Origin: Gemmatimonadota bacterium
GTDB lineage: Bacteria > JAAXHH01
Direction of reading: 5' to 3'
NCBI GenBank assembly: GCA_009838645.1
Contig: VXRC01000005.1
Location: 26,858-90,857, forward strand
Length of the DNA stretch: 64,000 bases
A program made the position numbers and the translations under genes. Below the pieces are notes generated by a model. The model saw only the letters and a program-made list of their open reading frames with translations, did not search any database and was not told the origin of the DNA. This document shows, in pieces, positions 6,395 through 40,505 of the stretch. Every line of letters starts with the position of its first letter. Within the stretch, counting starts at the first letter, position 1.

Positions 6395-6433
6395 GTCTCT
6401 TCGTCGGAGAAGTCTCCCGCGTCCAGCGGGACG

Positions 6434-19243: not shown

Positions 19244-19267
19244 CCCGGGCGCGCCCGGGCTACCCGG
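19236..19267. other. A 32-nt perfect GC-rich palindrome CCGGGTAGCCCGGGCGCGCCCGGGCTACCCGG overlapping the stop codon of the oxidoreductase gene
   Basis: Reverse-complement identity was checked by eye. There is no downstream T-tract, so it does not look like a classical intrinsic terminator. Confidence 0.6.
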
Positions 19268-23297: not shown

Positions 23298-25226
23298 TCA
23301 ACCGGACGCCGGCGCTGCGTGACCCCCGTAACCGAGGGTTTCCACGTCCTGGTGCAGGCGTTCCAGCACCCGGGACCTGACCTCTTCGAAGAGCTCCCGG
23401 GTCAGGAAATGCACGGCGGGCAGGTCGCCCTTGGACTGACCGACGAAGACGTCGGCCGGCATGTCGTATTCGTCCGGAGTGATCCCCTGTTTCTGTTCGA
23501 GGGCGAAACCCAGGATGTGGGCCCGGTAGGTGGCGTCCAGCACCCGATCGGACGAGAAAGGCACCCCGAAAACGGACTCTATGCCTTCGCTGACCTGGTC
23601 CGGCGGGGCCATGGTGAACAGGCAGCCCCCGTGCAGGTCCTTGTTCACCATTTTCCAGCCTTCCTCGGTGATGTTATGGACCCAGTAATCGGCGGAATCG
23701 GGCTTGCAGTCCGGGTCCATAACGTACAGCAGGAAGGTGCGCATGGACATGTGGCCGCCGGCTACGGCGAAGGGATAGCCCGGGTTGGTCTGTCCCAGGT
23801 AGGCGGAGAACTCGACCCCCTTGGCATGCATGGCGAAAGCCTTTCCTCCGATCTCTTCGGCGATCGCCTGGACGCCCTTGCCGAAGAGGGGTTCGCGTCC
23901 GTAGGCGATATCCTCCTTGAGCCGGCGGGTGCCTTCCGCGTCCCCGAAAGTGACGCCGCCCGCGACGGTACCGTTGCCCCGGGCATTGTAATCCATCAGG
24001 AAGGAGATCACGACGTTGGCCGAAATGGTATCGAACCCCAGGTCGTCGTCCAGCCGGGCGAGCTCCAGGTTATCGTGGGGATCCAGGATGCCCAGGTTGG
24101 CGCCGGACAGTTCCATGGGTTCGAACTCGAACCGGCCGAGGTATTCTCCATGGTTCCTCCGGGCCTTGCGCCAGTCCGGATCCTTGCCACCTTCCGGGAC
24201 GTCGTAGAAGTCCTGGTGGCAGGTAATCTGGCAGCCGTAGCAGCTTTTGTCGATGACGATGAAATCTTTCGATTCCCGCATGGTCTCCAGGTGTACCGGG
24301 ACGGCCACGTTCTCGCCGGGCGGCTCGAAGTTCCTGTAGGGCAGCACCCCGAATCCGTCGAGTATCTTGCTGTTCTTGCCCGTGCCGCCCAGTCCGTTCC
24401 GGTTGTGCGGATGGCGGTATCCCCGGCTCTGCTCGCCCCGTCCGATCTCGTTGTTGATGACCTTGAGTCGGTCGTCGCCCTTGCGGTAATAGTCGTTCTC
24501 CGCCCGGGCTACGATGCCGAGGATGTTCTTGGAACCGAGTACGGATCCCATGCCGAGTCGGCCTGCGAAACGCCACTTGTCTTCCCCGCTCATCAACTGT
24601 TCCTGGGTCGAGCCCACCACGGCGGCGTACCAGACCGTTTCCCAGTGCTCGCCGGCCGGTCCGAGGACGGCGAAATGGGCGTGGTAGTTCTTGTCGCCAT
24701 CGTTGTAGCGTTCGTCCAGGTAGACCATCTTTTCCCGGACCCGCGCGCCGATCAGGTAATCCGGGGCTTCGACCAGGGAAAGATCGGGGCCGTCGTCTGT
24801 CTGCCTGATCACCAGGAAGCTGGGAACGGCGGCGCGGCCGGTGAGGATCAGGTCGCCGATGCCGGTGTAGGAGAACTTGCGGCCGAAACTCCCGCTCATG
24901 GCCGACCATACGGGCATGGGCATACCGGCCCGGGTGCGCTTCAGGGGAGAATAGCCGGAAAAATACGCCCGCAGACCGGTCATAAACTGCGTGCCGGTGA
25001 AGCAGCCGGTATTGATGACCAGCGGGACGTCCGGCGCAAAGGGATCGCTTACGTCGTAACCCGAAAGGATCTTGAAGGACCGGCCGATGCCGCCCAGGAA
25101 ATCCATGTCGTCCTGGACGCGGTGGTCCTCGACGCTGACTTTGCGGCCTTCGGCCAGGTCGTATTCGATACGGGTATAGCAATAATCGGTCACGTCTCCC
25201 GGCGTGCCGTTTACGGGTTTCAGCAC
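23298..25226 (-). CDS. Aldehyde:ferredoxin oxidoreductase (AOR) family tungsten/molybdopterin enzyme
   Basis: A 642-aa protein with the AOR N-domain and the CYGCQITC [4Fe-4S] ligand motif. Overall length and order match AOR domains 1-3. Confidence 0.85.
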   Translation of the reverse strand: MLKPVNGTPGDVTDYCYTRIEYDLAEGRKVSVEDHRVQDDMDFLGGIGRSFKILSGYDVSDPFAPDVPLVINTGCFTGTQFMTGLRAYFSGYSPLKRTRAGMPMPVWSAMSGSFGRKFSYTGIGDLILTGRAAVPSFLVIRQTDDGPDLSLVEAPDYLIGARVREKMVYLDERYNDGDKNYHAHFAVLGPAGEHWETVWYAAVVGSTQEQLMSGEDKWRFAGRLGMGSVLGSKNILGIVARAENDYYRKGDDRLKVINNEIGRGEQSRGYRHPHNRNGLGGTGKNSKILDGFGVLPYRNFEPPGENVAVPVHLETMRESKDFIVIDKSCYGCQITCHQDFYDVPEGGKDPDWRKARRNHGEYLGRFEFEPMELSGANLGILDPHDNLELARLDDDLGFDTISANVVISFLMDYNARGNGTVAGGVTFGDAEGTRRLKEDIAYGREPLFGKGVQAIAEEIGGKAFAMHAKGVEFSAYLGQTNPGYPFAVAGGHMSMRTFLLYVMDPDCKPDSADYWVHNITEEGWKMVNKDLHGGCLFTMAPPDQVSEGIESVFGVPFSSDRVLDATYRAHILGFALEQKQGITPDEYDMPADVFVGQSKGDLPAVHFLTRELFEEVRSRVLERLHQDVETLGYGGHAAPASG

Positions 25227-27431: not shown

Positions 27432-28967
27432 TTGATTGCGATTCCGGCATCTAAGTACAAAAATATCGTCCCGTTACCCCACGGAGCCCCCGTGAACGTT
27501 ATCTGTGTCTGCCTGGACACCTTTCGCGCCGACATCATCGGCCCGGGCAGGAAGTACAGCCACGCGCACACGCCCAATCTCGACGCCTTCCACCGCAGCA
27601 GCATCCGGTTCAACCGCGCCTTCGGCGAAGGGCAGCCCACGCTGCAGGTCCGTCGCGCCCTGTTCACCGGGATGCGCAGCTTCCCGTGGCGCTACAACTT
27701 CGACCGGCGCGGCCACTGGCACCATGCGCCTGGCTGGCACAAGATCCCGCCGGAGCAGGATACGATCGCGGAGGTGCTGCTGGAAAGGGAGTACCTGACG
27801 GCCCTCATCGCCGACACGTACCACATGTTCAAGCCCACCATGAACTTCTCCCGGGGGTTCGCTCACCTGGATTTCGTGCGGGGACAGGAATCGGACAACT
27901 GGAAGAGCGGCGATCCGAAACTCGTCGAGGCGCAACTTGCCCGGCACGTGAGGCAGCCCGTGGACATGTTGAAACATACGGGGCTTGTGAACTACCTGCT
28001 CAACCAGCGCCACAGGAAGGACAGGGAAGACTACCAGTGCGCCCGGGTGTTCAACTCGGCCTGCGCGTGGCTTGCCGACAACCATACAGCGGGGCCCTTC
28101 TTCCTGTGGGTCGACAGCTTCGATCCCCACGAGCCCTGGGACCCGCCGCCGGAGTACGCCGACCGGTATTTCGAGCACGACGGCCTCGATTTCATCGTGC
28201 CCGGTCCCGCATACGCCCGTGACGGATCGGGCGGATCAGGCGGGCCAGGTGGAGCAGGCGGGCCATCTGAAGCGGAACTCCGCCGCATCGAGGCGCTGTA
28301 CCTGGGGGAGGTCACCCTGGTGGACGAGTACGTGGGCCGGTTGCTGAATGCGGTGGCGGACCGGAACCTCCTCGATGAAACCCTGATCGTGATCCTGTCG
28401 GACCATGGGACCCAGTTGCTCGACCAGGGGAGCTTCGGCAAGGGGCCGAACGAACTGCATCCCTTCAATACCCAACTCAACCTCATGATGCGCGTACCCG
28501 GCGGTCCGACGGACGTGGACGTGGACGCCTTCGTGCAGAACCACGACCTCATGCCCACGCTGCTCGGCCGGCTCGGGGTACGGGCGGACTGGACGGACGG
28601 CGAGGACCTGTGGCCGCTGGTCACGGGTGAGAAGGCCGCCATCCGTGATCGGATCGTGACCGGGTGGGCGTCCTTCATCACGGGCAACGCCGTGGGCCGG
28701 GCTAGTGTGCGGGACGATCGCTGGAACTTCTGCACGTCGGTGGGCTACGAGGACGAGAACGGCGATGAACTCTTCGAACTGGAGGACGATCCGGAAGAAC
28801 GGCGGAATGTCGCAGGACAGCATCCTGACGTTGTCTCGGAGCGTCGTGGCGACGTGGAAGCGGTCCTGGGTCAGCCCCTTCCCGGCCGGATGGTGGAGGT
28901 ATGTGATCCCGCCCCTGCGCCCATGACGCACTGGCTGGAGCAACGGTTGCGGAGGCGGCAGGATTGA
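27432..28967 (+). CDS. Sulfatase-like hydrolase/transferase (alkaline phosphatase superfamily)
   Basis: The translation contains CLDTFRAD metal-ligand, TPNLD and QPTLQVRRALFTG regions. The position of the sulfatase CxPxR Cys aligns to a Thr here. A Gly-rich insert GSGGSGGPGGAGG is present over 511 aa. Confidence 0.7.
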   Translation: MIAIPASKYKNIVPLPHGAPVNVICVCLDTFRADIIGPGRKYSHAHTPNLDAFHRSSIRFNRAFGEGQPTLQVRRALFTGMRSFPWRYNFDRRGHWHHAPGWHKIPPEQDTIAEVLLEREYLTALIADTYHMFKPTMNFSRGFAHLDFVRGQESDNWKSGDPKLVEAQLARHVRQPVDMLKHTGLVNYLLNQRHRKDREDYQCARVFNSACAWLADNHTAGPFFLWVDSFDPHEPWDPPPEYADRYFEHDGLDFIVPGPAYARDGSGGSGGPGGAGGPSEAELRRIEALYLGEVTLVDEYVGRLLNAVADRNLLDETLIVILSDHGTQLLDQGSFGKGPNELHPFNTQLNLMMRVPGGPTDVDVDAFVQNHDLMPTLLGRLGVRADWTDGEDLWPLVTGEKAAIRDRIVTGWASFITGNAVGRASVRDDRWNFCTSVGYEDENGDELFELEDDPEERRNVAGQHPDVVSERRGDVEAVLGQPLPGRMVEVCDPAPAPMTHWLEQRLRRRQD

Positions 28968-29066: not shown

Positions 29067-29082
29067 TTGTACAATTGTACAA
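29067..29082. promoter_or_regulatory. AT-rich 16-bp perfect palindrome TTGTACAATTGTACAA (two overlapping ACAATTGT units) 35 bp upstream of the SDR gene
   Basis: Reverse-complement identity was confirmed. It overlaps a TACAAT -10-like hexamer in an otherwise GC-rich genome. Confidence 0.45.
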
Positions 29083-29116
29083 CTAAAATGCGCATGCCTG
29101 GGATCGCACCTGCGGA

Positions 29117-29905
29117 GTGGCCATGCGACTAGCGGACAAGGCCGCGATCGTGACGGGCGCGGGGGACGGAATAGGACGGGGCATCGCGCTGGCGCTCGCC
29201 CGGGAAGGCGCCGCGGTGGCGGTGTGCGACATCAACGCCCAAACCGTCGCGGAGACCGGCCGCCTGGTCGCGGACACGGGCCGGCCCGTCCTGGCGGAGG
29301 CGCTGGACATCACCGACCATGACCGGGTCCGGTCCTTCGTGGACGACGCGGCCTCCCGGTTCGGCAGAATCGACGTCCTGGTCAACAACGCCGCCATCAT
29401 GCCCGTAAGCCCCATCGAGCACCAGGACGAGGAGACCATGTCCCGCATCCTCTCCGTCAACCTCCTGGCGCCGGCCGTCTTCAGCAAGTACTGCATTCCG
29501 CATATGCGTGCCGCGGGCGGCGGATCGATCATCCACATGGCCAGTGTGACGGGTCATAACGGCCATCCGGGCGTGGCCGTCTACGGGGCGACGAAGGGCG
29601 GGCTGATCGCCCTGGCCCGAGGCCAGGCCATGGAACTGGCCGAGGACCGGATCAGGGTCAACACGGTTTCGCCCGGCACGGTGGATTCGCCCATGCTGCA
29701 CAACTTCGTGAAGGAGAACGCCGGAGACCCGGAGGCGGCGCTCAGGGCTTTCGACCGCCTGCACCCCATCGGCCGGGTCGCTACCATCGGGGAGGTCGCC
29801 AACGTCTTTGTTTTCCTGGCGAGCGACGAATCCAGCGACATCACGGCGACGGACATCCGGTGCGACGGCGGCTACGCGGTCCAGGGACGACAGCCGACCG
29901 AATAG
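29117..29905 (+). CDS. SDR family oxidoreductase
   Basis: The translation carries TGAGDGIGRG, NNAA and YGATK motifs over 262 aa. Confidence 0.85.
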   Translation: MAMRLADKAAIVTGAGDGIGRGIALALAREGAAVAVCDINAQTVAETGRLVADTGRPVLAEALDITDHDRVRSFVDDAASRFGRIDVLVNNAAIMPVSPIEHQDEETMSRILSVNLLAPAVFSKYCIPHMRAAGGGSIIHMASVTGHNGHPGVAVYGATKGGLIALARGQAMELAEDRIRVNTVSPGTVDSPMLHNFVKENAGDPEAALRAFDRLHPIGRVATIGEVANVFVFLASDESSDITATDIRCDGGYAVQGRQPTE

Positions 29906-29949
29906 CAACAGGCAAAGTCGGCAATGAGCACCAGCGGCAAGGAGAATCT

Positions 29950-30996
29950 ATGTCAGTAGGGGTTTGCGCGTACTCGTTCAACACGGGATACGACGCCTTT
30001 CAGCTCATGGACATGGCCGTCCAACACGGCCTCGGCGGCGTGGAGTTTCCTCCCGACGACTGCCTCCCCGATCTGTCCCCGGCCTCGCTGGAGCGGGCCC
30101 GTGCCCGGGCCGAGGAGATCGGGTTGTACGTCGTAGCGGACGGCGGTCAGGTCGAGGGCGAGATGATGCACCGCCTGATCCCCGCGGCCGCGAGCCTCGG
30201 CGCCTCGACGTTGCGCGTGGTCATGAGCGGCGTCCTCGGCGGCGACCGCCGGCCGCTGTCGGGCCGGTGGAACGCCCATCTCGCCGGGTGCAGAGACATC
30301 CTGCGCGAGGCGCTGCCCCTGGCCGAGGAACACGGGGTGACCATCGCGGTGGAGAACCACTCGGACGCCACGTCCCACGACATGCGCTGGCTCTGCGAGG
30401 AACTGGACAGCGCGTACATCGGCATCACGCTCGACGTGGGCAACGTGCTGGCGGTCTGCGAGGAACCCTTCGGATACACGGAACGCATCCTCCCTTACCT
30501 GAAGCATGTCCACCTCAAGGACTACACGATCCATCCCTCCGACGAGGGGTACCGCATCGCGCGGTGTTCACTGGGCAGCGGCGTGGTCGACTACCGCGGC
30601 CTGCTTTCCCTGATCGACGTATACCGGGGCCAGCGCGGCCAGGCGGTCCAGCCCGGCCCGGCGGACCAGCCCAGCCCGGCGGACCAGTCCGGCCCGGCGG
30701 ACCAGCCCGGCCAGATCACGAAAACCATCGAACTGGGCGCCATCTACGCCCGGCACGTGCGCATGCTCATGGATGACTACTGGGCGGAATACCCCGAACG
30801 CGACATCAGGGACATGCTGCCGTTTTTGCGGCTGTACTGGTCCCACGTCCGTCCCGTCGGGGAAGACTGGCGCACGCCCAGGGAGAAGGACGAATCCACC
30901 GAGGCCCTGAAGGCATACGAGACGCGGGAGTTCGAAGAAAGCGTCGCCTATCTGAAAGAAATCGGGGCCGTCCGGGCGGACTCCGGCACATCCTGA
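29950..30996 (+). CDS. Sugar phosphate isomerase/epimerase (xylose-isomerase-like TIM barrel)
   Basis: The translation from MSVGV shows IAVENH and LKD metal-site context. A GGAGAA RBS precedes the ATG at 29950. A QPGPADQP repeat insert is present. Confidence 0.75.
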   Translation: MSVGVCAYSFNTGYDAFQLMDMAVQHGLGGVEFPPDDCLPDLSPASLERARARAEEIGLYVVADGGQVEGEMMHRLIPAAASLGASTLRVVMSGVLGGDRRPLSGRWNAHLAGCRDILREALPLAEEHGVTIAVENHSDATSHDMRWLCEELDSAYIGITLDVGNVLAVCEEPFGYTERILPYLKHVHLKDYTIHPSDEGYRIARCSLGSGVVDYRGLLSLIDVYRGQRGQAVQPGPADQPSPADQSGPADQPGQITKTIELGAIYARHVRMLMDDYWAEYPERDIRDMLPFLRLYWSHVRPVGEDWRTPREKDESTEALKAYETREFEESVAYLKEIGAVRADSGTS

Positions 30997-31013
30997 ACCA
31001 GGCGGGTCGATTC

Positions 31014-32123
31014 ATGAGCTTCTCCTATCAAACCGGCGACCCTATTGAAAAGAAGGCGGCCCTGATGAAGATGGCACGCCTGGACCAATCCGACATGCAT
31101 GGGTCCATCGGATCGATCCCGGACCAGATGGAGGCGGCCTGGGAGGCCATGGCGGGACGCACTTTCCCCGACGCCTGCCGGAACGTCAACCACGTGGTCG
31201 TGGCGGGCATGGGGGGATCGGCCCTGGGCGCCCACCTGATACAGGACGTCTTCCGCGACCGGCTGCGCGTTCCGGTCACTATCGTATCCGATTACGCGGC
31301 CCCTTCGTGGATCGACGAGCGGACCCTCATCGTGCTGTCCAGCTATTCCGGGGGCACAGAGGAAGTGATGGCCGTGGCGGAACACGGCCTGTCCAGGGGA
31401 GTATCGATGATCGCCCTGACCACGGGGGGCGACCTGGAAGCGTTCGCCGGGCGCCATGGGCTGCCGGCCGTGGTGTTCGGCAGCGAGCTCAACACCTGCG
31501 GGCAGCCGCGTATCGGCCTGGGCTACGCGGTCACCTACCTCCTGGCGATGTTCCGTCAACTGGGGTTCGTGGCGCTTGCCGAATCCGAGGTAACGAGCAC
31601 TCTCATGCTGCTCCGGGAGACCAACCCGGATTACGCTGCGCCCGGTGAGGAGAACCCCGCCTATGAGTTGGCCTCGGCCACGGGGGGGAAGTCGATCCTG
31701 ATCATGGCTTCCGAGCATCTCACGGGCAACGCCCACATCCTGGCCAACCAGTGGAACGAGAACGCCAAGAACCTGGCCGTCTGGTTCGCCATACCGGAAC
31801 TGAATCACCATCTGCTCGAAGGGATGACCCACCCCGTGGAGCACCGGGACGGACTCGCCGCCGTGCTGATCCAGTCCGGCCTGTACGATCCGCGCAACCG
31901 GCGCCGCCACGAGATTACCCGCACGCTGCTCGAGCAGCAGGGGATCGCGTGTTCCGTAGTAACGCCCGGGGGAGAGACGGCGCTCGAGCAGGCCTGCGAC
32001 CTGCTCCTGCTCGGTACCTACGCCAGTTTCTACCAGGCAATTATGAACGACGTCGATCCGTCGCCCATACCCTGGGTCGATCAGTTCAAGCGGCTGATGG
32101 CATCAAGAGACGGTAAGGTATGA
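31014..32123 (+). CDS. Bifunctional phosphoglucose/phosphomannose isomerase (SIS domain, archaeal type)
   Basis: Two SIS modules are present, including VVVAGMGGSALG over 369 aa. Confidence 0.8.
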   Translation: MSFSYQTGDPIEKKAALMKMARLDQSDMHGSIGSIPDQMEAAWEAMAGRTFPDACRNVNHVVVAGMGGSALGAHLIQDVFRDRLRVPVTIVSDYAAPSWIDERTLIVLSSYSGGTEEVMAVAEHGLSRGVSMIALTTGGDLEAFAGRHGLPAVVFGSELNTCGQPRIGLGYAVTYLLAMFRQLGFVALAESEVTSTLMLLRETNPDYAAPGEENPAYELASATGGKSILIMASEHLTGNAHILANQWNENAKNLAVWFAIPELNHHLLEGMTHPVEHRDGLAAVLIQSGLYDPRNRRRHEITRTLLEQQGIACSVVTPGGETALEQACDLLLLGTYASFYQAIMNDVDPSPIPWVDQFKRLMASRDGKV

Positions 32124-35100
32124 GTGAAATCGTCACCTACCTGCGGGGAAAGAACCTGCTGATCACCGGCGCCACCGGATTCCTTGCGAAAGCGGTCGTG
32201 GAGAAGATCCTGCGGTGCGCCCCGGAAGTAGGCCGTATCTACCTGGTCGTCCGGGCCCGAAGGAGGAAGGACGGCACCACACTGACGGCGCGGGAACGGG
32301 TGGAGGAAGAGATCCTCCAGTCCGCCGCCTTCGCCCGGCTTCGCGAGACCCACGGCGAACGTTTCGCGGATATCATGCGCGCCAAGGTCCACGCCGTCGA
32401 GGGCGACCTTACCCAGGACCACCTCGGACTGGAACCGGACCTGTACCACCGGCTCGCGGCGGAAGTCGACGTGGTGCTCACCTGCGCGGCATCCGTGACC
32501 TTCGACGAAGAAATCGACGCCGCGCTTCAGCTTAACACCCTCGGTGCGCGGCGCATGATGGAATTTGCCAGATCGTGCGGCGACGCCACGCTGGTCCACG
32601 TCTCGACGGCCTACGTTAACGGCCAGACCAAGGGCCGCATTCCCGAAGCACCGCCCCGTCCGGACTGGTCCATGGCCCAGGAAATGGGGCGAAGCGACGC
32701 GCCTTTCGACCTGGAACGGGAAATCCGGGACATACTCGCCAGGGCGGATGAGATCCACGACGACTCCCGTTCGCCGGGACAGCAGGAGCGTTTCAGGAAG
32801 ATGGCGCTGCAGCAGAACCCGAGCCCCTCGCAGCGCTGGCTCGACGCCCAGATGGAGACCTTTCGCAAGCGCTGGCTCAAGGAACGGCTTATCGAAGAGG
32901 GCATGCGCCGCGGGCAGCAGTGGGGTTGGCACGACAGCTATACCCTGACGAAGGCCATGGGCGAGCAGTTGATCGTCAAGCACCGGGGCGACCTGCCCAC
33001 GGCCATAATAAGGCCGTCCATCGTGGAAAGCGCGCTGGTCGAGCCCGAACCGGGATGGATCGAGGGGCTCAAGGTAGCCGACCCGCTCATCGACGCGGTG
33101 AGCAAGGGGCGCCTGCCGGACTTCCCCGGCCAGAAAGACATGATCGTGGACATCATCCCGGTGGACATCGTGGCCAATACGACCCTGGCGGCCATGGCGC
33201 GCACGGCCCGGGAAGGCGGGATCGGCGTGTACCACGTTTCGACGGGCGACCGGAATCCCGTCCTATTCCACCAGGCCTTCGAGCACTCATACGAGTACTT
33301 TCAAAAGTACCCCCGCCTGAACCGGAACAACGAACCCATACCGATCCAGCGATGGACCTACCCGACCCTTGGCCAGTTCCGGCGCCGGTACAACCTGCGC
33401 TTCGTCTACCCCCTGAACGCCGCGTTGTGGACGCTCAACCGCTTCACCCGGATTACCCTGCTGAACAACCTGAAGCGCAGAATCGCCGTGATGAAGTCGG
33501 CGATCTCGCGCATGCTGTACTACGCCGCGATCTACAGTCCCTACACGTCCCTGGAATGCACCTTCGAGACGGACCGCACGGTCAGGTTGCACGAAAGTCT
33601 GGATCCCGAGGACCGGCTGCTCTTCAACGGCGACGTCTCCAGGATCCTCTGGAAGACCTATTTCCAGGATATCCATATCCCCGGCCTGAAACGCCACGTG
33701 CTGAAGACCGATGAGCCGAAGCCCGCGGTCACGGAAGAAGAGGAGGTGGCGGAGCGATCCGGGTTCGCCCAGGCCGGGGAGGATGCGCTGCCCCATCTCG
33801 ATACGCTGACGGACATACTGGCCAAGAGCGCGGACATGTACGGAGACAAGACCGCGCTGCAGATGCCGCGGGACGATGGCTGGATCCGCTATTCCTTCAA
33901 GGACGTGTTCGCCCTGGCCGGACACATCGGCTGGCAGTGGCGTTCCAGCGGCCTGCATTCGGGTGACCGGGTCTTGCTCTTCTCGGAGAACCGGCCCGAA
34001 TGGGGTATCGCCTGTTTCGCCGGGATGGTGGCCGGGGCCGTGCTCGTGCCTGTGGACCGCCGGTCGACACCCCAGGAAGTATGGCGCATTGCCCGGTTTA
34101 CCGAATCGAGGGCCATCCTCTGCACGGAAAGCGGTCACGCATTACTCACCGCGTCGGCGAAGCCCGGCGGTGAACCGGCGGAGCCCGGCGGCGACGTCAT
34201 GTTCTGGAACATCGAAAACTACGGTCTGCCGTTCGACGCGCCGCGAAGGTCCGCGTCGCCCGTCACACTGAACGAGGAGCCGCCCCCCTGGGCGCCAGTG
34301 GATCCCGATACGCCGGCAGCCATCATGTTTACCCGGGGCATGGCGGCCGAATCCCACGGCGTGGTCCTGACCCATCGGAACTTCGTTTCGAACCTGCTGT
34401 CCCTCGCCGAGATCCTGCGCGCCTACCGGACCGACCATTTCCTGTCCCTGCTGCCCATGAGCCAGGCCCTGGAGTTCACGGGCGGTTTCCTCATGCCGTT
34501 CTACGCGGGGGCGACCATTACCTATACCACGTCGGTAAGGCCGCGGTCCCTGGTCGGCCTGATTGATGAAACCGGGGTCAACTGCCTGATCGCTGCGCCA
34601 CGGTTATTCGGGCTGTTGCACGGGTCGCTGCGACAGACGGCCGAGAAAAACGGCGACAGCGTCGTTTCCCGCATGCGGCTGCTGGTCAGCGGCGGCGGCA
34701 CGCTCGATTCGGACCTGTACCACGCCTACCGGGAGATCGGCCTGACGATCCACGAGGGATACGGGCTCACGGAAGCGGCCCCGGTCGTGACCGTAAATCC
34801 CATGGACCGAAGCAAGCCCTCCTCCGTCGGTGTGGCCCTGCCGGCGGTAGACGTTGAAATCCAGGCCCCCGACAAAGAAGGCAACGGCGAGATTATCGTG
34901 CGCGGGAACAACGTCATGCAAGGGTACTACAGGAACCCTACGGCGACGGAGAACCGTCTCCGCGGCGGGTGGCTTCACACGGGGGACATCGGACGCATCG
35001 ACCGCGACGGCTATCTGTACATCATGGAGCGCCTGGGCCAGGCCACCGGGTCCGCCGGTTCCGCCGGTTCCGCCGGTTCCGCCGGTTCCGCCGGGTCCGT

Positions 35101-35830
35101 GCCAGGAGGTCCGGAAGGAGCGGCCGGTCGACGGGCGGGACGCTTCGTAAACGGCCGGGAACACGCCGCGACGGCCTTCTTCGACGTGGACGGCACCATC
35201 GTGGACGCGACGATCGTACACTACTACGCCTTTTACAGGACCTGGGGATATTCCTCCCTGCGGCGCCTAGTCTGGACCATCGGATTCCTGCCGAAAATCC
35301 TCTATTACATCGTCCTGGACAAGATCAGCAGGAGCCGATTCATCCAGGCGTTCTACCGGCAGTACCGTGGTTTCGGTCGCGGGGAATGCGTTTCGAGGAG
35401 CGAGCAGCTTTTCGAAAAAGTCATGCGTCCACGCATGTACGCCGGGGCCGTCGATCGCATTCGGGCGCACCAGCAACGGGGCGAGCGCGTGGTCCTGGTC
35501 ACCGGGTCCCTGGATTTCGTCATGGAGCCGCTGGCGGAATACACCAAGGCGGACGACCTCATCGCCCTGTCCATGAAGGAAGACGACGGCCAGCTGACCG
35601 GCGAGACGGAAGGGCCGCCCATCGGTGACGAGGCGAAGGCCCGAATCGTCCGGGACTACGCCGAGCGCCGCGGTATCGACCTGGCCCGGTGCTATGCCTA
35701 TGCCGACAGCAGTTCGGACGCGCCCATGTTGGGCGTGGTAGGACACGCCGTCGCCGTGAACCCCGGCGGGAAGCTGAAGAAAGCCGCGGAAGCCGGCGGG
35801 TGGGAAGTCGTGCACTGGACCCATGTATGA
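32120..35830 (+). CDS. Multidomain fatty acyl reductase (NAD_binding_4 plus Sterile) / AMP-dependent acyl ligase / HAD-IB phosphatase fusion
   Basis: Residues 1-530 form the FAR portion (LITGATGFLAK, VHVSTAYVNG, the YTLTK active site and a C-terminal FNGDVSRILWKTYF Sterile-like region). Residues 540-970 form the adenylate-forming domain (GYGLTEAAP, GWLHTGDIGRIDRDGYLYIMER). A (SAG)n linker follows. Residues 990-1236 form the HAD-IB domain (FFDVDGTI, VTGS, AYADSSSDAPML). The ATGA start overlaps the PGI/PMI stop. Confidence 0.8.
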   Translation: MSEIVTYLRGKNLLITGATGFLAKAVVEKILRCAPEVGRIYLVVRARRRKDGTTLTARERVEEEILQSAAFARLRETHGERFADIMRAKVHAVEGDLTQDHLGLEPDLYHRLAAEVDVVLTCAASVTFDEEIDAALQLNTLGARRMMEFARSCGDATLVHVSTAYVNGQTKGRIPEAPPRPDWSMAQEMGRSDAPFDLEREIRDILARADEIHDDSRSPGQQERFRKMALQQNPSPSQRWLDAQMETFRKRWLKERLIEEGMRRGQQWGWHDSYTLTKAMGEQLIVKHRGDLPTAIIRPSIVESALVEPEPGWIEGLKVADPLIDAVSKGRLPDFPGQKDMIVDIIPVDIVANTTLAAMARTAREGGIGVYHVSTGDRNPVLFHQAFEHSYEYFQKYPRLNRNNEPIPIQRWTYPTLGQFRRRYNLRFVYPLNAALWTLNRFTRITLLNNLKRRIAVMKSAISRMLYYAAIYSPYTSLECTFETDRTVRLHESLDPEDRLLFNGDVSRILWKTYFQDIHIPGLKRHVLKTDEPKPAVTEEEEVAERSGFAQAGEDALPHLDTLTDILAKSADMYGDKTALQMPRDDGWIRYSFKDVFALAGHIGWQWRSSGLHSGDRVLLFSENRPEWGIACFAGMVAGAVLVPVDRRSTPQEVWRIARFTESRAILCTESGHALLTASAKPGGEPAEPGGDVMFWNIENYGLPFDAPRRSASPVTLNEEPPPWAPVDPDTPAAIMFTRGMAAESHGVVLTHRNFVSNLLSLAEILRAYRTDHFLSLLPMSQALEFTGGFLMPFYAGATITYTTSVRPRSLVGLIDETGVNCLIAAPRLFGLLHGSLRQTAEKNGDSVVSRMRLLVSGGGTLDSDLYHAYREIGLTIHEGYGLTEAAPVVTVNPMDRSKPSSVGVALPAVDVEIQAPDKEGNGEIIVRGNNVMQGYYRNPTATENRLRGGWLHTGDIGRIDRDGYLYIMERLGQATGSAGSAGSAGSAGSAGSVPGGPEGAAGRRAGRFVNGREHAATAFFDVDGTIVDATIVHYYAFYRTWGYSSLRRLVWTIGFLPKILYYIVLDKISRSRFIQAFYRQYRGFGRGECVSRSEQLFEKVMRPRMYAGAVDRIRAHQQRGERVVLVTGSLDFVMEPLAEYTKADDLIALSMKEDDGQLTGETEGPPIGDEAKARIVRDYAERRGIDLARCYAYADSSSDAPMLGVVGHAVAVNPGGKLKKAAEAGGWEVVHWTHV

Positions 35831-37062
35831 AAGCCGTACAGTACATCAAGAGCGTACCCCGGTACCTGTTCGTCCGCACCCTCGGCCATCGCCGACCCGG
35901 CCCGGCCACCGGCGCGCTGTCGTGCATCCGCATGGCGGACGTCGATCCCCCCGCGCTTCCGACGCCTGAATGGATGCGTGTCAGACCGCTGTTGAGCGGA
36001 ATCTGCGGATCGGACCTTTCCACCATACGGGCGAAGGGCAGCCCCTATTTTTCGCCCCTGATTTCCGCGCCTTTCGTCCTGGGCCACGAAGTGGTGGGCG
36101 AGGTGGAGGAGGCCGGTTCAGGTCCCGGGGAAGTTTCCCGGGGAGACCGCGTGGTGATCGAGCCCGGCCTCTGCTGCGCCGTCCGGGGTATCCACCCACC
36201 GTGCCCGCCGTGCGGGGAAGGCGATTTCGGGCTGTGCGAGATGGTCATGCACGGCGACATTTCCCCGGGGATACAGACCGGGTACTGCAGGGACACGGGT
36301 GGTGGATGGAGTACGTCCCTGGTGGCGCACCCCTTCCAGGTCCACCTGGTGCCCGATCCGCTTTCCGACGAGGAAGCGGTCCTGGTCGAACCCTTCAGCT
36401 GCTGCCTGCACGCCGTGCTGAAGTCCTTTCCCGGTGATGACGAGACCATCCTGGTGATCGGCTGCGGCGCCGTCGGACTACTCACCATCGCGGCCATACG
36501 GGCCCTGGGAGGGAAGTGCCGCATCCTCGCCGCCGCGCGGTATCCCCATCAGCAGGCCCTGGCGCCCGCCCTCGGCGCCGACCGCGTCATCGGCAGGGGC
36601 GAAGACCTCTACGATACGGTCAGCGAAGTGACGGGTGCGGAGATCCATCGGCCCGAGATCGGGCGGCCCGTATTCATCGGCGGCGTGCACCGGACCTTCG
36701 ACTGCGTCGGGTCGTCGCGCACCATCGACGACGCGCTGCGGCTGACCGGCTCCGGCGGCGTCGTCACCGTGGTTGGCATGCCGGGCATTCCATCCGGGAT
36801 CGACTGGACGGCGGTGTGGTACAAGGAATTGAAAGTGCAGGGGGCCTACGCCTACGGGACGGAGGAACACGAAGGTCGGTCCGTCCGGACCTTCGACCTG
36901 GCCATGGATCTGATCGCGTCGGGGGAGGTCGGCCTGAAGCCTCTCGTGACGGACCTCTTCCCCCTTACGGCATACCGGAAGGCCATCGGCCGGGCCCTGG
37001 AAGCCGGCCGGCACGGCGCCGTCAAGGTGGCTTTCGACCTGAGAAACGAACCGGGGCCGTAA
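35827..37062 (+). CDS. Zinc-dependent alcohol dehydrogenase (MDR superfamily)
   Basis: The translation carries GHEVVGEV, a structural Zn Cys cluster CPPCGEGDFGLC and GCGAVGL. The ATGA start overlaps the upstream stop. Confidence 0.85.
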   Translation: MKAVQYIKSVPRYLFVRTLGHRRPGPATGALSCIRMADVDPPALPTPEWMRVRPLLSGICGSDLSTIRAKGSPYFSPLISAPFVLGHEVVGEVEEAGSGPGEVSRGDRVVIEPGLCCAVRGIHPPCPPCGEGDFGLCEMVMHGDISPGIQTGYCRDTGGGWSTSLVAHPFQVHLVPDPLSDEEAVLVEPFSCCLHAVLKSFPGDDETILVIGCGAVGLLTIAAIRALGGKCRILAAARYPHQQALAPALGADRVIGRGEDLYDTVSEVTGAEIHRPEIGRPVFIGGVHRTFDCVGSSRTIDDALRLTGSGGVVTVVGMPGIPSGIDWTAVWYKELKVQGAYAYGTEEHEGRSVRTFDLAMDLIASGEVGLKPLVTDLFPLTAYRKAIGRALEAGRHGAVKVAFDLRNEPGP

Positions 37063-37119
37063 GTCCGATGGGGACCGCACCGAGGTTTCAACGGTAACCG
37101 TGCGAATCGGAGCACACCC

Positions 37120-38760
37120 GTGCCTTACCTGAAGTTGTTGCACGCAAAAGCCCCGCAAGTCCATGTCCTGTCAAGGGATGTCACTACCCTGGGCCGTTCC
37201 GGCGAGGCCGACATCGCCATAGGCGGCGACCGGGGCGTTTCGAAGCTTCATGCGCGTATCGAAACGGAGGCGTCGGGCTACGTGATCGCGGACCTGGGCA
37301 GCCGGAACGGGACTTACGTCAACGATCATCCAATCGGCGACGAGCCCGCCCCGCTGCTGCCGGGTGACCGCATCCGGCTCGGACGATCGGTTTTCGTCTT
37401 CGAGGGGGGAGAACCCGGAGAGCGCGCCGATGATCTGCAGGCGCCGGCCTCCCTCTTCCGGGCGGACCAGTTGCCGTACACGATGGCGGGCGGGACACCC
37501 GCCGTGAAGCCTGAGGATACCGACGGACGGCTGCTGAAACTCACGGAACTGAGCAAGGAAGTCATGACGGCCCGCAGCGAGGCCGAGCTGGGAGACCTCG
37601 TGACGGGGAGCCTGCTGGAATGGCTGGAGGCGGACTGCTGCGCGATCGTCCATCCCGTCGAGACCGGGGATGGCTACGATTTCGAAATCCGGACGCTGGC
37701 CTCCCGGCCCGGTTACGAAGACCGCTCGATTTCGATCAGCACGACGGCGGTGAAACAGGCCCTGGAAAACCGGATGGCCTCTATCACTTCGAACGCCCCG
37801 GGGGACGAGCGGTTCAGGGACCGGCAGAGCGTGATCGTCCGCCGGCTGGTGTCCATACTGTGCGTGCCCCTGTGGCATGAAGACCGGGTGTTCGGCCTGC
37901 TTTACCTGGATTCCGCGGATCCGGCCGTGGAGTTCACCGTGGACCATCTCGGCCTGTCCAGCGCGGTGGCCAACCTGACCGCCATCAAGACCGACAACCT
38001 GCGCCTCTTCGACGCCGCCGTGGCCAAAAGCGCACTGGACAAGGAACTGGCCCTGGCGGGCGAGATCCAGGCCGGGCTGCTGCCGGGAGAAAGCTATGCC
38101 TTCAACACGCTGGCCTGCGCGGGCGCCCATGTGTCCTGCGAGGAGATCGGCGGGGACTATTACGACTTCATTCCTTATGGCGAGGATGTCCTGACGGTGA
38201 CGATCGCCGACGTCACCGGACACGGCCCGTCCAGCGCGTTGCTCATGGTCGCCTGCAAGACCATGCTGACCACCCTCATCGACATCGGCGTGCCACTGGT
38301 GGAACGCGTCGGCAGGCTGAACGATTACATACTCCATCATTCCTCGGTGAGCCAGTTCATCACCTTCTTTCACGCCGATATCGATACCGGGGCGAACACC
38401 CTGCGGTACTGCAACGCCGGGCACAATCCGCCCATGCTTCTTTCGCAGGATGGACCGGTCCAGAAGCTGCATGCAGCCGCGCCGCCGCTGGGGATCGCCG
38501 ACGTTTCCTTTGAGGTGGAATCGGTACGGTTCGAATCCGGGACCAGGCTGGTCATGTATACCGACGGCGTCACCGAGGCGGCCAACGCCGAAGGCGATCT
38601 CTATGAAGAACAACGGCTCGAGTCCCTGCTGACGAAGCACAGGGGCCAGGATGCGGGCGCATTGAAGGACACCGTCATGGCGGCGGTGTTCGGGTTTTCA
38701 TCGGAATCCCGGCAATGTGACGACGTCACCCTGGCCGTGGTGGAGCATACCGGCGCGTAA
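37120..38760 (+). CDS. FHA-GAF-PP2C (SpoIIE/RsbU-like) serine/threonine phosphatase
   Basis: An N-terminal FHA domain (GRS...HARI...DLGSRNGTYVN), a central GAF domain and a C-terminal PP2C domain (ADVTGHG...YTDG) over 546 aa. Confidence 0.8.
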   Translation: MPYLKLLHAKAPQVHVLSRDVTTLGRSGEADIAIGGDRGVSKLHARIETEASGYVIADLGSRNGTYVNDHPIGDEPAPLLPGDRIRLGRSVFVFEGGEPGERADDLQAPASLFRADQLPYTMAGGTPAVKPEDTDGRLLKLTELSKEVMTARSEAELGDLVTGSLLEWLEADCCAIVHPVETGDGYDFEIRTLASRPGYEDRSISISTTAVKQALENRMASITSNAPGDERFRDRQSVIVRRLVSILCVPLWHEDRVFGLLYLDSADPAVEFTVDHLGLSSAVANLTAIKTDNLRLFDAAVAKSALDKELALAGEIQAGLLPGESYAFNTLACAGAHVSCEEIGGDYYDFIPYGEDVLTVTIADVTGHGPSSALLMVACKTMLTTLIDIGVPLVERVGRLNDYILHHSSVSQFITFFHADIDTGANTLRYCNAGHNPPMLLSQDGPVQKLHAAAPPLGIADVSFEVESVRFESGTRLVMYTDGVTEAANAEGDLYEEQRLESLLTKHRGQDAGALKDTVMAAVFGFSSESRQCDDVTLAVVEHTGA

Positions 38761-38784: not shown

Positions 38785-39837
38785 TCAGATCCAGCCGTGA
38801 TCGATGTTCACCGGCGTGCCGGACTGCTGGTGGGTCCACTGTCCCCCACTGGCCAGCGGCACCTCCCTGCCCGAAATGGAAGAATGCTCCGCGGCGAACA
38901 GGATCTCCATGACGTGGCGGCCCCATTCTCCGGGCGTGGGCGGTTCGATATCCTTGCGGATCGCCTCGACGAACCCCTTCCACTCGTTGTACATGGGATG
39001 AGGCGGGTCGTCGAAGGGCACGTCCTCCCACCGGTTGTCCTTGCCCACCCTGACGTACTTCTCGCCGGACTCGCTGAAGCGCAGCGATCCGTTGGCGCAG
39101 ATCACCTGGCACTCGTGATTGGGGCCGCCGTCGGCGTACCCGACGGCCACCGCCACGCCCGACGTGCCGTTCTTGTAGCGGATGAATGCCGTGGCGGAAT
39201 CGTCCGCGGCCTGGTAGTGGGCCCGGTTGCCGATGGTGGCGGAGACCGAGACCGCCTGCGAGGCCATGACCCAGGAAAGCCGGTCCACCACGTGGACCCC
39301 GTTGGTCATCCACATGCCGCCGCCGTGGAACCGGCTGCGGTACTGGGGTCTGCGGCTGCCGTACCCCCAGTTCTTGGACATGTAGCACACCCCCGTAATG
39401 GCCGGTCCCAGGGCGCCAGAATCCAGGATTTCCTTGGCCTTGATGCTGGTGCCGTAGAAGTGCTGCGTCAGGCCCACCATGAGCTTGACGCCGTTGGCCG
39501 CCGCGGCGGCGATCATGTCGTCGCACTGTTCCAGGCTGATCGCCATGGGCTTTTCCACCAGGACGTGCTTGCCGGCGTTGCAGGCGTCCACGGTCAGCCG
39601 GTGATGCAGCTGGTGGCCTAGGACGATGGCCACCGCTTCGACCTCGTCGTCCTCAAGCAGTTCCGTATGGGTGGCGTAACCCCTGGGGATGTCGTACATG
39701 TCCATGTATTCACGGCGCTTTTCCTCGAGCAGGTCGGCGACCGCCACGATTTCCACGCCGTCCTGGTTCGCAATGGCTTCGCAGTGGGGACGGGCGATGC
39801 CGCCCAGTCCGATGATGCCGACGCGCAGGTTAGACAC
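38785..39837 (-). CDS. Gfo/Idh/MocA family oxidoreductase
   Basis: The translation carries LRVGIIGLGGIARPH and EKPMA motifs over 350 aa. Confidence 0.8.
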   Translation of the reverse strand: MSNLRVGIIGLGGIARPHCEAIANQDGVEIVAVADLLEEKRREYMDMYDIPRGYATHTELLEDDEVEAVAIVLGHQLHHRLTVDACNAGKHVLVEKPMAISLEQCDDMIAAAAANGVKLMVGLTQHFYGTSIKAKEILDSGALGPAITGVCYMSKNWGYGSRRPQYRSRFHGGGMWMTNGVHVVDRLSWVMASQAVSVSATIGNRAHYQAADDSATAFIRYKNGTSGVAVAVGYADGGPNHECQVICANGSLRFSESGEKYVRVGKDNRWEDVPFDDPPHPMYNEWKGFVEAIRKDIEPPTPGEWGRHVMEILFAAEHSSISGREVPLASGGQWTHQQSGTPVNIDHGWI

Positions 39838-39885: not shown

Positions 39886-40092
39886 TCACAATTCATTTTC
39901 CGATATCTGTGCGATCCTCATCAAGTGTGCCTGCAATCCACGTTTGAGCGTTACATTCCCATGGACCGGAACCGAAATGCGCGCGACTTCTCCATCTTTG
40001 GCATAAATATGATGACTGCCACTTATTCGTTTGAGATGCCATCCATGAGATTCAAGCAACCGGCAAAGGCGCTTCCCGGTAATCGCTTTCAC
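39886..40092 (-). CDS. hicA: Type II toxin HicA (mRNA interferase)
   Basis: A 68-aa protein with LESHGW...ISGSHHIY motifs and a GTG start. Confidence 0.85.
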   Translation of the reverse strand: MKAITGKRLCRLLESHGWHLKRISGSHHIYAKDGEVARISVPVHGNVTLKRGLQAHLMRIAQISENEL

Positions 40093-40292
40093 ACGGCCAC
40101 TTCTATGATGCGATCGGTCTCAGAGATTTCGAAGTCACCGACTTCGACGGACAGGCATCCGTCAATCGCCTCAAGGATGTTGCTGCGCAACTCATCCAGC
40201 GAATCACCTTGCGACACGCATCCTGGGATTGCGGGGACTTCGGCCCAATATCCACCTTCTTCGGCTCTATGTACGATGACTTTGAGTTTCAT
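40089..40292 (-). CDS. hicB: Type II antitoxin HicB (UPF0150 family)
   Basis: The translation from MKLKVIVHRAEEGGYWAEVPAIPGCVSQGDSLDEL is about 68 aa. It overlaps hicA by 4 nt. It was trimmed from the 40427 ORF. Confidence 0.7.
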   Translation of the reverse strand: MKLKVIVHRAEEGGYWAEVPAIPGCVSQGDSLDELRSNILEAIDGCLSVEVGDFEISETDRIIEVAV

Positions 40293-40505
40293 TGTTCTCC
40301 TCGGGTTCCGTTTGCGGTAATCAAATTGGTGGTCCAAGTCCTCGAAATCGATCACCATGAGGACCTCCACCAGGAACGTCAGACGCCGGTTTACTGATAT
40401 CAGGCACGGCGTGGCGGTCTTACTCAACTCACCCTGCGTTACGTGTCTTCAGACTGCAGTGGTCAAACGATACGATCATAGTATTACGGTAACTCGTAGC
40501 CTGCT

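Follow-up and report, generated by a model that had tools for sequence, protein, structure and literature searches.

A conserved six-gene cluster around a predicted ElbD-ElbB fusion: a likely reduced Latescibacterota form of the elb ether-lipid cluster

The best-studied bacterial gene cluster of the kind considered here is the elb operon of Myxococcus xanthus (MIBiG BGC0000871; Lorenzen et al. 2014, as reviewed in PMC9131029). The operon elbA-E encodes the ether-lipid enzyme ElbD, in which a fatty acyl-CoA reductase (FAR), an acyl-CoA synthetase (ACS), an acyl carrier protein (ACP) and an acyltransferase (AGPAT) follow each other, and includes elbB, the gene for a HAD-like phosphohydrolase (PMC9131029). 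That ElbD is required for ether-lipid formation has been shown only in M. xanthus (PMC9131029). The elb-like clusters of sponge symbionts consistently pair elbD with elbB (PMC9426513; bioRxiv 10.64898/2026.06.23.733905), and 'standalone elbD hits', some also with agps, have been listed for Latescibacterota metagenome-assembled genomes (MAGs) from sponges (bioRxiv 10.64898/2026.06.23.733905). An elb-type cluster as such is already a known kind of system. Here we describe six genes, g1 to g6, on the forward strand at positions 29123-38760 of a stretch of 64,000 nucleotides (nt) of contig VXRC01000005.1. This whole stretch is called the window in the following. The fourth gene, g4, encodes a truncated ElbD fused to an elbB-type HAD phosphatase. 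On balance we favour the view that the six genes are a reduced Latescibacterota form of the elb (ether-lipid) cluster which works along the lines of the model given below.

Like the M. xanthus operon, the window contains a protein with homology to the FAR and acyl-CoA synthetase parts of ElbD (residues 1-971 of g4) and an elbB-type HAD in the same cluster. Unlike the M. xanthus system, g4 is devoid of the ligase lid, the ACP and the AGPAT, and its HAD is fused instead of being a separate protein. Moreover, elbA, elbC and elbE are replaced by genes for a short-chain dehydrogenase/reductase (SDR), a TIM barrel protein, a phosphoglucose isomerase (PGI)-like protein, a Zn-dependent alcohol dehydrogenase (ADH) and an FHA-GAF-PP2C protein. 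Neither a Lar_N-type elbC nor NAD-dependent epimerase/dehydratase-type elbA or elbE genes were found among the cluster genes and the neighbours scanned with Pfam. The N-terminal part of g4 is only 30-36% identical to the ElbD of L143, a locus (70% GC) with canonical elbB-elbC(Lar_N)-elbD-elbE genes together with DAG-kinase and CDP-alcohol-transferase genes. With the elb-like families of sponge symbionts (Loureiro et al. 2022, PMC9426513) the window shares the elbD plus elbB core, variable oxidoreductases and the type of habitat. The sponge studies found canonical or Re/A-split elbD in Acidobacteriota and Poribacteria. An extended operon, an ElbD::ElbB fusion, a FAR::HAD form and a conserved operator are not described in those parts of the sponge elb-like cluster studies that were accessible. 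The isolate names SB0665, IRC1, APA and Plut suggest sponge and coral hosts for the bacteria that carry g4 relatives, which agrees with the elbD matches in sponge Latescibacterota MAGs of the 2026 preprint (bioRxiv 10.64898/2026.06.23.733905).

The products of g1-g6 were assigned by Pfam and NCBIfam profile searches (Table 1). These confirmed the order from SDR to FHA-GAF-PP2C proposed in an initial annotation of this DNA. In g4, residues 4-529 match the fatty acyl-CoA reductase of PDB entry 7eoz (4e-85). The FAR motifs TGxTGFL, S162, Y274 and K278 are invariant across the ElbD relatives. Along its whole length the FAR of the window matches stand-alone bacterial FARs such as 7eoz. Unlike these, it shares its chain with a ligase remnant and a phosphatase and resides inside an elb-type operon. 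The adjacent ligase region ends at the hinge. All alignments of PDB ligases to g4 stop at residue 971, which is approximately position 390-445 of these 500-550-aa enzymes, and g4 gave no match to AMP-binding_C. The missing C-terminal subdomain is the lid which carries the catalytic lysine of ANL enzymes. The P-loop of g4 reads FTRGMAAESHG versus FTKGTAVDPRG in the canonical relatives, a sequence that is already atypical in the ElbD family. Because the C-terminal subdomain is missing and the P-loop is degraded, the ligase part of g4 is very likely not a working ligase. It is taken to be a structural remnant. The linker that follows shows a mean identity of 39% among orthologs. In the HAD domain motif I (D1022-x-D1024-G-T) and motif IV (ADSSSD) are intact.

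A search for homologues of g4 returned two groups. The first comprises 22 clusters with the FAR, AMP-binding and HAD architecture which are 80-95% identical to g4. The second comprises hundreds of proteins of ~1410-1490 aa that are 40-69% identical over residues 1-971 only and continue into PP-binding (ACP) and Acyltransferase (AGPAT) domains. To full-architecture ElbD-type proteins in a PGI-X-HAD-ADH context this part of g4 is 58-69% identical. The homology to canonical ElbD ends with ...DGYLYIMER(971). At this position the relatives go on with GR-KDLIVTGAGKNVYP (A8/hinge, start of the C-terminal subdomain), and g4 goes on with the variable linker and then with FFDVDGT, motif I of the HAD. 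In the alignment this breakpoint is common to all fusion members. No match to PP-binding (PF00550) or to the acyltransferase family (PF01553) was obtained for g4, and tblastn of the window with canonical ElbD C-termini revealed no ACP/AGPAT remnant. The HAD part of g4 is 56% identical to the HADs downstream of canonical ElbD in loci L058 and L140, 47% in L057 and 41% in L142; the identity to the HAD of L143 is 37%. In L058 and L140 these 56%-identical proteins are stand-alone HADs whose genes lie directly 3' of the canonical ElbD gene and overlap it. A single deletion, beginning at the ligase hinge and ending where the elbB-type gene further downstream starts, best explains the arrangement of g4. 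As judged from these alignments, g4 is a truncated ElbD fused by deletion to an elbB-type HAD gene and not a de novo design. The FAR/ligase/HAD architecture of the initial annotation is revised by this origin and by the very likely inactive state of the ligase. Since g4 possesses the FAR and misses three of the four domain features which define ElbD (complete ANL ligase, ACP and AGPAT), we call it an ElbD derivative and not an ElbD.

Locus L055 with protein P0023 was first taken for the ancestral state, since it shares the upstream genes and its ElbD includes ACP-AGPAT. It was rejected as a chimeric scaffold or recombinant. Residues 1-880 of P0023 are 95-99% identical to the fusion clade, and from ~881 on the protein and the downstream region are 86-90% identical to the unrelated locus L143. 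At the nucleotide level the left part of L055 (from the sulfatase gene to ElbD residue ~880) is 92% identical to L001, and the right part is 86-89% identical to the L143-type locus. An open reading frame (ORF) of the window at 6434-10777 (-) was considered as a canonical ElbD paralogue, since its 1447 aa equal the length of P0023. It encodes an unrelated protein with four Cache domains and an autotransporter beta-domain. A metagenome scan with the ElbD alignment was uninformative, because generic ANL motifs were picked and ordinary acyl-CoA ligases were returned.

The genomes of the g4 relatives are MAGs; the close clade comprises ~20 species (loci L001-L022). In 18 species the g4 reading frame of 1191-1255 aa is open. 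For these, dN/dS was computed per domain by the NG86 method. The values were 0.13 for the FAR, 0.17 for the ligase remnant and 0.13 for the HAD, compared with 0.84 for the linker. Purifying selection acts on all three domains, while the linker is neutral and drifts. One might nevertheless regard g4 as a decaying ElbD relic, a pseudogene in the making with no selected function. The loss of the ligase lid, ACP and acyltransferase would fit such a decay, as would the degraded P-loop, possible frameshifts in L017 and L021 and the independent truncations of two relatives, P0028 without ACP-AGPAT and P0027 without the ligase part. However, the frame is open in all 18 species, three domains are constrained and the linker is not, the catalytic motifs of FAR and HAD are intact and the overlap with g5 is conserved. 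We consider a relic very improbable.

The two truncated relatives were inspected as well. P0027 of locus L144 (47% GC; positions 212-2608) is a 798-aa FAR::HAD protein from which the ligase remnant is deleted. Its gene lies between the PGI-like and the ADH gene, and the ATGA sequence at the junction to the latter is identical to that between g4 and g5 of the window. P0028 of locus L141 (2679-6026, 1115 aa) has kept a complete ligase and lost ACP-AGPAT independently; the FHA-GAF-PP2C gene directly follows it. At least one lineage, L144, can do without the ligase remnant. The series from canonical ElbD plus HAD via FAR, N-terminal ANL subdomain and HAD in one chain to FAR::HAD speaks for FAR and HAD as the pair under selection.

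Conservation of the cluster in related genomes had been named beforehand as the comparison that could speak against a functional unit. In L140/L145, where ElbD is 58% identical, the order is GH3, SDR (73%), TIM barrel (60%), flavin monooxygenase, PGI-like (59%), canonical ElbD, a separate 227-aa HAD overlapping the ElbD stop codon (56%), Zn-ADH (65%), FHA-GAF-PP2C (49%) and FGGY kinase (in brackets, here and below, the identity to the ortholog of the window). Unlike in the window, ElbD is complete there (1444 aa), the HAD is a gene of its own, the flavin monooxygenase separates TIM barrel and PGI-like genes, GH3 lies upstream, FGGY kinase lies downstream and there is no TTGTACAATTGTACAA site. 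Orthologs of all six genes are present in the same order with 49-73% identity. Only those six are shared with the window, the flanking genes are non-homologous and the GC content is 53% versus 63%. Due to the same order, the restriction to these six genes, the unrelated flanks and the different GC content the six genes are a conserved unit across a large divergence.

Smaller parts of the cluster were found in further loci. L058 (ElbD 59%) contains aldo-keto reductase, PGI-like (58%), canonical ElbD, HAD (56%), Zn-ADH (66%) and FGGY kinase. L142 (ElbD 44%) contains canonical ElbD, HAD (41%) and Zn-ADH (53%) with a 4-nt overlap. In L141 (ElbD 61%) a monooxygenase and a PGI-like gene precede the ElbD with whole ligase and without ACP-AGPAT, which is followed by FHA-GAF-PP2C, a hydrolase and FGGY. 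In L057 (ElbD 42%) the HAD (47%) is found three genes downstream of ElbD. L056/L015 (ElbD 66%) have ElbD, an 83-aa FHA-only protein (44% to the N-terminus of g6) and FGGY, and none of the other genes: SDR, TIM barrel, PGI, HAD and ADH are not next to this ElbD. The PGI-like gene lies directly 5' of ElbD in four independent lineages, among them L058, L140 and L141 with 58-59% identity to g3. HAD-ADH lie directly 3' in four lineages, often with overlapping codons, and the g5 orthologs directly follow the HAD in every case (65-66% identical in L140 and L058). The g6 orthologs of L140 and L141 (49-51%) occupy the same relative position. Together with the FHA-only protein after ElbD in L056 this ties FHA-GAF-PP2C to the cluster, as the initial annotation had supposed.

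The conserved order does not by itself require a common pathway. A sugar/polyol catabolic module of SDR, TIM barrel, PGI-like protein and Zn-ADH, along with the sulfatase-like and GFO genes next to it, might simply lie beside the lipid gene g4 as an independent unit with inherited gene order. In the close clade the whole 20-kb neighbourhood, the block from sulfatase to cyclase, is syntenic, so that conservation there says little. Several further observations agree with side-by-side units: g3-g4 spacers as long as 173 nt among orthologs and 335 nt for L140, the occurrence in L146 of a TIM homologue (47%) with no ElbD in its vicinity, the ElbD of L056 without accessory genes and the generic nature of the enzyme families. 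Against this, only those six genes stay ordered in L140/L145 despite 58% ElbD identity, a 10-point GC gap and non-homologous flanks. The neighbours on both sides of ElbD recur in four lineages each, and the g3/g4 and g4/g5 junctions of the window leave no non-coding spacer for a separate promoter. Independent units are in our opinion rather unlikely.

The junctions are short throughout. The spacings are 44 nt for g1-g2, 17 nt for g2-g3 and 57 nt for g5-g6. The ATGA overlaps (-4) of g3/g4 and g4/g5 given in the initial annotation can be read directly from the sequence. Translation of g1 was assigned to the ATG at 29123, which is preceded by GGAG; the listed ORF begins with GTG at 29117. A terminator scan detected no terminator-like site in the spacers from g1 to g6, and its matches lay inside coding sequence at chance frequency. 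With all six genes on the same strand, short or overlapping junctions and no internal intrinsic terminators, we infer that g1-g6 are co-transcribed. The g4/g5 overlap is kept in most orthologs and also in L142 and L144. The g3/g4 overlap is restricted to the window and L011, and most orthologs have 46-173 nt there. In L002-L019 this spacer (~9920-10000 in each locus) contains a conserved element, GATG followed by a variable GC-rich hairpin and GCATCGAAAGACGGTA, upstream of the g4 start. The element has no counterpart at 32090-32123 of the window. In the window and L011 a deletion of the spacer has produced the ATGA overlap: g3 runs into g4 and no intergenic room is left. RNAalifold of the orthologs' spacers gave a weak consensus of -3.6 kcal/mol, and no structure is claimed.

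Table 1: Coordinates of the six-gene unit, the parts of g4 and the boundaries of the unit in the window.
Feature	Position	Strand	Remarks
Upstream boundary: sulfatase-family (alkaline-phosphatase superfamily) gene	27432-28967	+	Pfam Sulfatase; separated from g1 by 155 nt
Perfect 16-bp palindrome TTGTACAATTGTACAA (two TTGTACAA units)	29067-29082	.	one copy in window; ends 41 nt before g1 ATG
g1, classical SDR, 260 aa	29123-29905	+	Pfam adh_short_C2 9.9e-62; TGxxxGIG and YxxxK motifs
g2, xylose-isomerase-like TIM barrel, 348 aa	29950-30996	+	Pfam AP_endonuc_2
g3, SIS/bact-PGI_C protein, 369 aa	31014-32123	+	Pfam bact-PGI_C 1.3e-31 and SIS
g4, FAR + AMP-binding + HAD fusion, 1236 aa	32120-35830	+	Pfam, NCBIfam
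g4 residues 1-530, fatty acyl-CoA/ACP reductase (NAD_binding_4 + Sterile)	32120-33709	+	Pfam 1.1e-66 and 4.8e-13
g4 residues 560-971, N-terminal subdomain of ANL ligase	33797-35032	+	ends at hinge; Pfam AMP-binding
g4 residues 972-1018, low-complexity (GSA)n/Gly-Arg linker	35033-35173	+	length and sequence vary among orthologs
g4 residues 1019-1236, elbB-type HAD-IB phosphatase	35174-35827	+	Pfam PF12710 6.8e-38; TIGR01490 133.7 vs cut-off 98.3
g5, Zn-dependent medium-chain dehydrogenase, 411 aa	35827-37062	+	Pfam ADH_N, ADH_zinc_N
g6, FHA-GAF-PP2C(SpoIIE), 546 aa, last gene of unit	37120-38760	+	Pfam SpoIIE 6.7e-47, FHA 9.4e-19, GAF 4e-10
Downstream boundary: convergent GFO/IDH/MocA oxidoreductase	38785-39837	-	Pfam; lies 24 nt past g6; syntenic in close clade only

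The accessory enzymes were assigned as far as family level. NCBIfam gave generic SDR and glucose 1-dehydrogenase subfamily matches for g1, a generic NAD-type SDR. The AlphaFold model of g2 (pLDDT 86.5) found its best Foldseek matches in the isomerase Art22, a 3-keto-glucal hydratase and ketose 3-epimerases. In its predicted fold g2 resembles the metal-dependent keto-sugar epimerase/isomerase/hydratase class, and the fold search gives no specific function. A protein 100% identical to g2 (P0241) is annotated as 'sugar phosphate isomerase/epimerase' in NCBI. Residues 233-252 of g2 (~30646-30705) form a PADQ-rich low-complexity loop of variable length with a pLDDT below 50. A dedicated SDR-TIM pair was considered on the basis of L146 and is not established, as the SDR beside the TIM homologue there is only 35% identical to g1.

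The initial annotation had described g3 as a bifunctional enzyme, a PGI and phosphomannose isomerase (PMI). Against the NCBIfam models for such enzymes (PRK08674 / TIGR02128) g3 aligned over its full length, but the scores of 237.7, 222.6 and 150 were below the cut-offs of 471, 295 and 213.9, respectively. In an alignment with the PGI/PMI 1TZB the g3 motifs QPR, WNENAK and NHH fall on chain positions R135, E203 and H219, which we take to be the catalytic residues. With its SIS and bact-PGI_C fold and the aligned Arg, Glu and His, g3 is by sequence PGI/PMI-like and not a certified equivalog. For g5 the closest solved relatives are an NADP(H) ketose reductase, threonine 3-dehydrogenase and sorbitol dehydrogenase, and the catalytic and the structural Zn motif can both be read in the sequence. 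The similarity to these enzymes places g5 in the polyol/ketose-reductase branch of the family rather than in the fatty-alcohol branch. The domains of g6 are, in order, FHA (22-88), GAF (151-290) and SpoIIE (357-543). As FHA-GAF-PP2C is a conserved member of the cluster, a phosphorylation-dependent control layer is likely, and g6 is the presumed regulator. Judged by their families, SDR, TIM barrel, PGI-like protein, ADH and HAD are, with the FGGY kinase of the relatives, predicted activities to phosphorylate, isomerise, oxidise or reduce and dephosphorylate a small keto or polyol phosphate.

A lipid with a sugar head group was the product proposed in the initial annotation: hexose-phosphate interconversion would supply the head group for the fatty alcohol of the fusion, giving a glycosylated or phosphorylated alkyl lipid. 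The linkage of a PGI/PMI-like isomerase with conserved Arg, Glu and His positions to a FAR-bearing gene is in line with this proposal, a GH3 glycosidase leads the cluster in L140/L145 and ether glycoglycerolipids of sponges are discussed in the 2026 preprint (bioRxiv 10.64898/2026.06.23.733905). However, in or beside the cluster of the window, L140, L141, L058 and L142 no glycosyltransferase, nucleotide-sugar synthase or nucleotidyltransferase was found, so that nothing specific favours a glycosylated product. The phosphatase domain is an elbB homologue which would remove rather than retain a phosphate, and ADH and TIM barrel point to keto/polyol chemistry and not to glycosyl transfer. An alkyl lipid with a sugar or phosphate head group is quite unlikely.

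The enzyme families could also be read as a pathway for a polyol or compatible solute. HAD and ADH, with the PGI-like protein and the FGGY kinase of the relatives, would make a free polyol from a sugar phosphate, the FAR would separately supply fatty alcohol (e.g. for wax esters) and the fusion would be a tolerated accident. In favour of this, the nearest relatives of the ADH are ketose and sorbitol reductases, small-molecule phosphatases occur in the HAD-IB family, and a polyol-phosphate dehydrogenase working together with a HAD phosphatase is a known biosynthetic logic. But the HAD is tied to ElbD in lineages without ADH and PGI genes (L057, L143) as well as to elbD in M. xanthus and in the sponge elb clusters. 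Furthermore, the fusion is under purifying selection in at least 18 species, it was tightened to FAR::HAD in L144, and no wax synthase is nearby. A polyol pathway of this kind is equally improbable.

The perfect palindrome upstream of g1, reported in the initial annotation as a likely repressor operator, is located at 29067-29082 (Table 1). The window contains 4 perfect 16-nt palindromes compared to a mean of 1.8 in Markov simulations of the window. Its symmetry alone is not beyond chance; its significance comes from conservation. In 19 orthologous loci the column conservation of the palindrome is 0.98 versus 0.46 in the upstream and 0.55 in the downstream flank. It occurs with at most one mismatch and as a single copy per ~23-kb locus. 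In most loci the spacing to the g1 ATG is exactly 41 nt, with a conserved GGAG in between. The site is not present in the distant relatives L140, L058 and L141. A conserved cis-element with dyad symmetry near the first gene is thereby established, and the palindrome is probably an operator. The overlap with a -10 element claimed in the same place was not recovered: a scan with the sigma-70 consensus, which may not be that of the host phylum, gave no promoter at the palindrome and results at chance level. Since only ~30 nt are left for a 5' leader, the palindrome most likely overlaps the core promoter, which would fit a repressor operator. Among regulator families, those with GntR/AraR-like TTGTAC half-sites or with a CRP/FNR-like 5-6-5 layout came into question for the palindrome, but neither is put forward here. 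In L017 an IS630-like transposase gene (5800-6918, -) is inserted between palindrome and g1, which separates them by 1.2 kb. Two further perfect 16-nt palindromes of the window at 19244-19259 and 54720-54735 are unrelated in sequence to TTGTACAATTGTACAA.

For the favoured reduced elb cluster we propose the following working model. The ancestral order would have been SDR, TIM barrel, PGI-like, canonical ElbD, ElbB-type HAD, polyol-type Zn-ADH and FHA-GAF-PP2C, often followed by FGGY kinase. In the marine-symbiont clade one deletion would have removed ligase lid, ACP and acyltransferase and joined the rest in frame to the HAD. The intact FAR would act on acyl-CoA or acyl-ACP that is provided in trans and reduce it to a fatty aldehyde or alcohol, with the ligase remnant as a non-catalytic scaffold. 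The fused HAD and the coupled ADH may dephosphorylate a phosphorylated backbone and reduce its C2-keto/hydroxyl position; the backbone could be of the glycerol/dihydroxyacetone phosphate (DHAP) type or another polyol. SDR, TIM barrel and PGI-like protein might make or isomerise this keto/phospho backbone. The acyl-DHAP-forming and alkyl-exchange steps would come from genes elsewhere. All six genes would be expressed from one transcript whose promoter is overlapped by the palindrome and bound by a dimeric repressor, and FHA-GAF-PP2C would adjust the pathway post-translationally. The likely product class would be an alkylglycerol-type ether lipid.

The functional logic of this model is taken from the eukaryotic peroxisomal route (FAR1, GNPAT, AGPS, acyl/alkyl-DHAP reductase and lipid phosphatase). 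There, the alcohol is provided by a FAR, the backbone derived from DHAP is the substrate of a keto-reductase, and a phosphatase takes off the phosphate (PMC9131029). HAD and ADH of the window would play roles analogous to the lipid phosphatase and the acyl/alkyl-DHAP reductase. Unlike in the eukaryotic route, there is no AGPS or GNPAT-like domain in the operon, and the reductase candidates, a medium-chain dehydrogenase and a classical SDR, correspond by analogy only. The evolutionary and structural statements are much firmer than the chemistry, which we would place, taken alone and argued by analogy, well below an even chance.

Several points weigh against the reduced elb cluster, among them the uninformative synteny of the close clade and the L056/L015 ElbD without its usual neighbours mentioned above. 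Every substrate assignment is made by analogy. Even for M. xanthus, neither what ElbB does biochemically nor how the ElbD route forms the ether has been worked out (PMC9131029). Without ACP and acyltransferase g4 cannot do the presumed job of canonical ElbD, and it may make something else, such as free fatty alcohol, wax or some other lipid. The accessory enzymes come from broad sugar/polyol families and could serve carbohydrate metabolism in a lineage that is rich in such genes. In the relatives, the g3-g4 spacer may hold a boundary between transcripts, a site of processing or an internal start. Finally, the sigma-70 scan found no consensus promoter, and the scanned neighbours included no recognisable regulator gene for the palindrome.

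A further-reaching proposal, which we regard as unlikely, concerns the minimal core of the pathway. FAR and HAD between a PGI-like protein and a ketose-reductase-type ADH may mark the core of an AGPS-independent bacterial ether-lipid route for which ACP and acyltransferase are dispensable. Symbiotic Latescibacterota would then make the monoalkyl glycerol ethers of sponges under a Ser/Thr-phosphorylation switch formed by FHA-GAF-PP2C. If this is true, a phosphatase and a reductase that work as a pair on the keto-polyol-phosphate backbone would receive the fatty aldehyde or alcohol donor by channelling.

The natural domain deletions show which parts selection keeps, namely FAR, HAD and polyol-type ADH together with the PGI-like protein and the PP2C regulator. 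These retained parts are concrete candidates for the missing steps of the ElbD route, the ether bond and the role of ElbB. The locus also provides the 'standalone elbD hits' of sponge Latescibacterota with a defined, conserved operon and with a candidate operator, and is relevant to the question of which symbionts produce the ether lipids of sponges. Should the accessory genes serve ordinary sugar metabolism, what remains is an unusual gene fusion.

Both genes that border the unit are outside of it. The sulfatase-family gene is found upstream in L001-L021, syntenic in the close clade only, and GH3 takes its place in L140/L145. The gene following PP2C in L140 is FGGY kinase and not GFO/IDH/MocA. 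At the place of the formylglycine motif of type I sulfatases, C/S-x-P-x-R, the product of the sulfatase-family gene has CLDTFRAD and ...GQPTLQVRRALFTG, and the motif is not evident from the sequence. Instead of a sulfatase, the gene may encode a phosphoesterase belonging to the alkaline-phosphatase superfamily.

Scans of the whole window for Rfam families and tRNAs gave no matches. Between the GFO and cyclase genes the GC content is locally low, and two small overlapping ORFs there, at 39886-40092 (-) and 40089-40427 (-), resemble, by eye from their translations, a HicA/HicB toxin-antitoxin pair. An aldehyde:ferredoxin oxidoreductase is encoded at 23298-25226 (-), and several PhyH dioxygenase genes are scattered across the window. 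A 2102-aa ORF at 55139-61447 (-) contains a SprA_N (type IX secretion) domain, which presumably fits a Bacteroidota-related (FCB-group) lineage.

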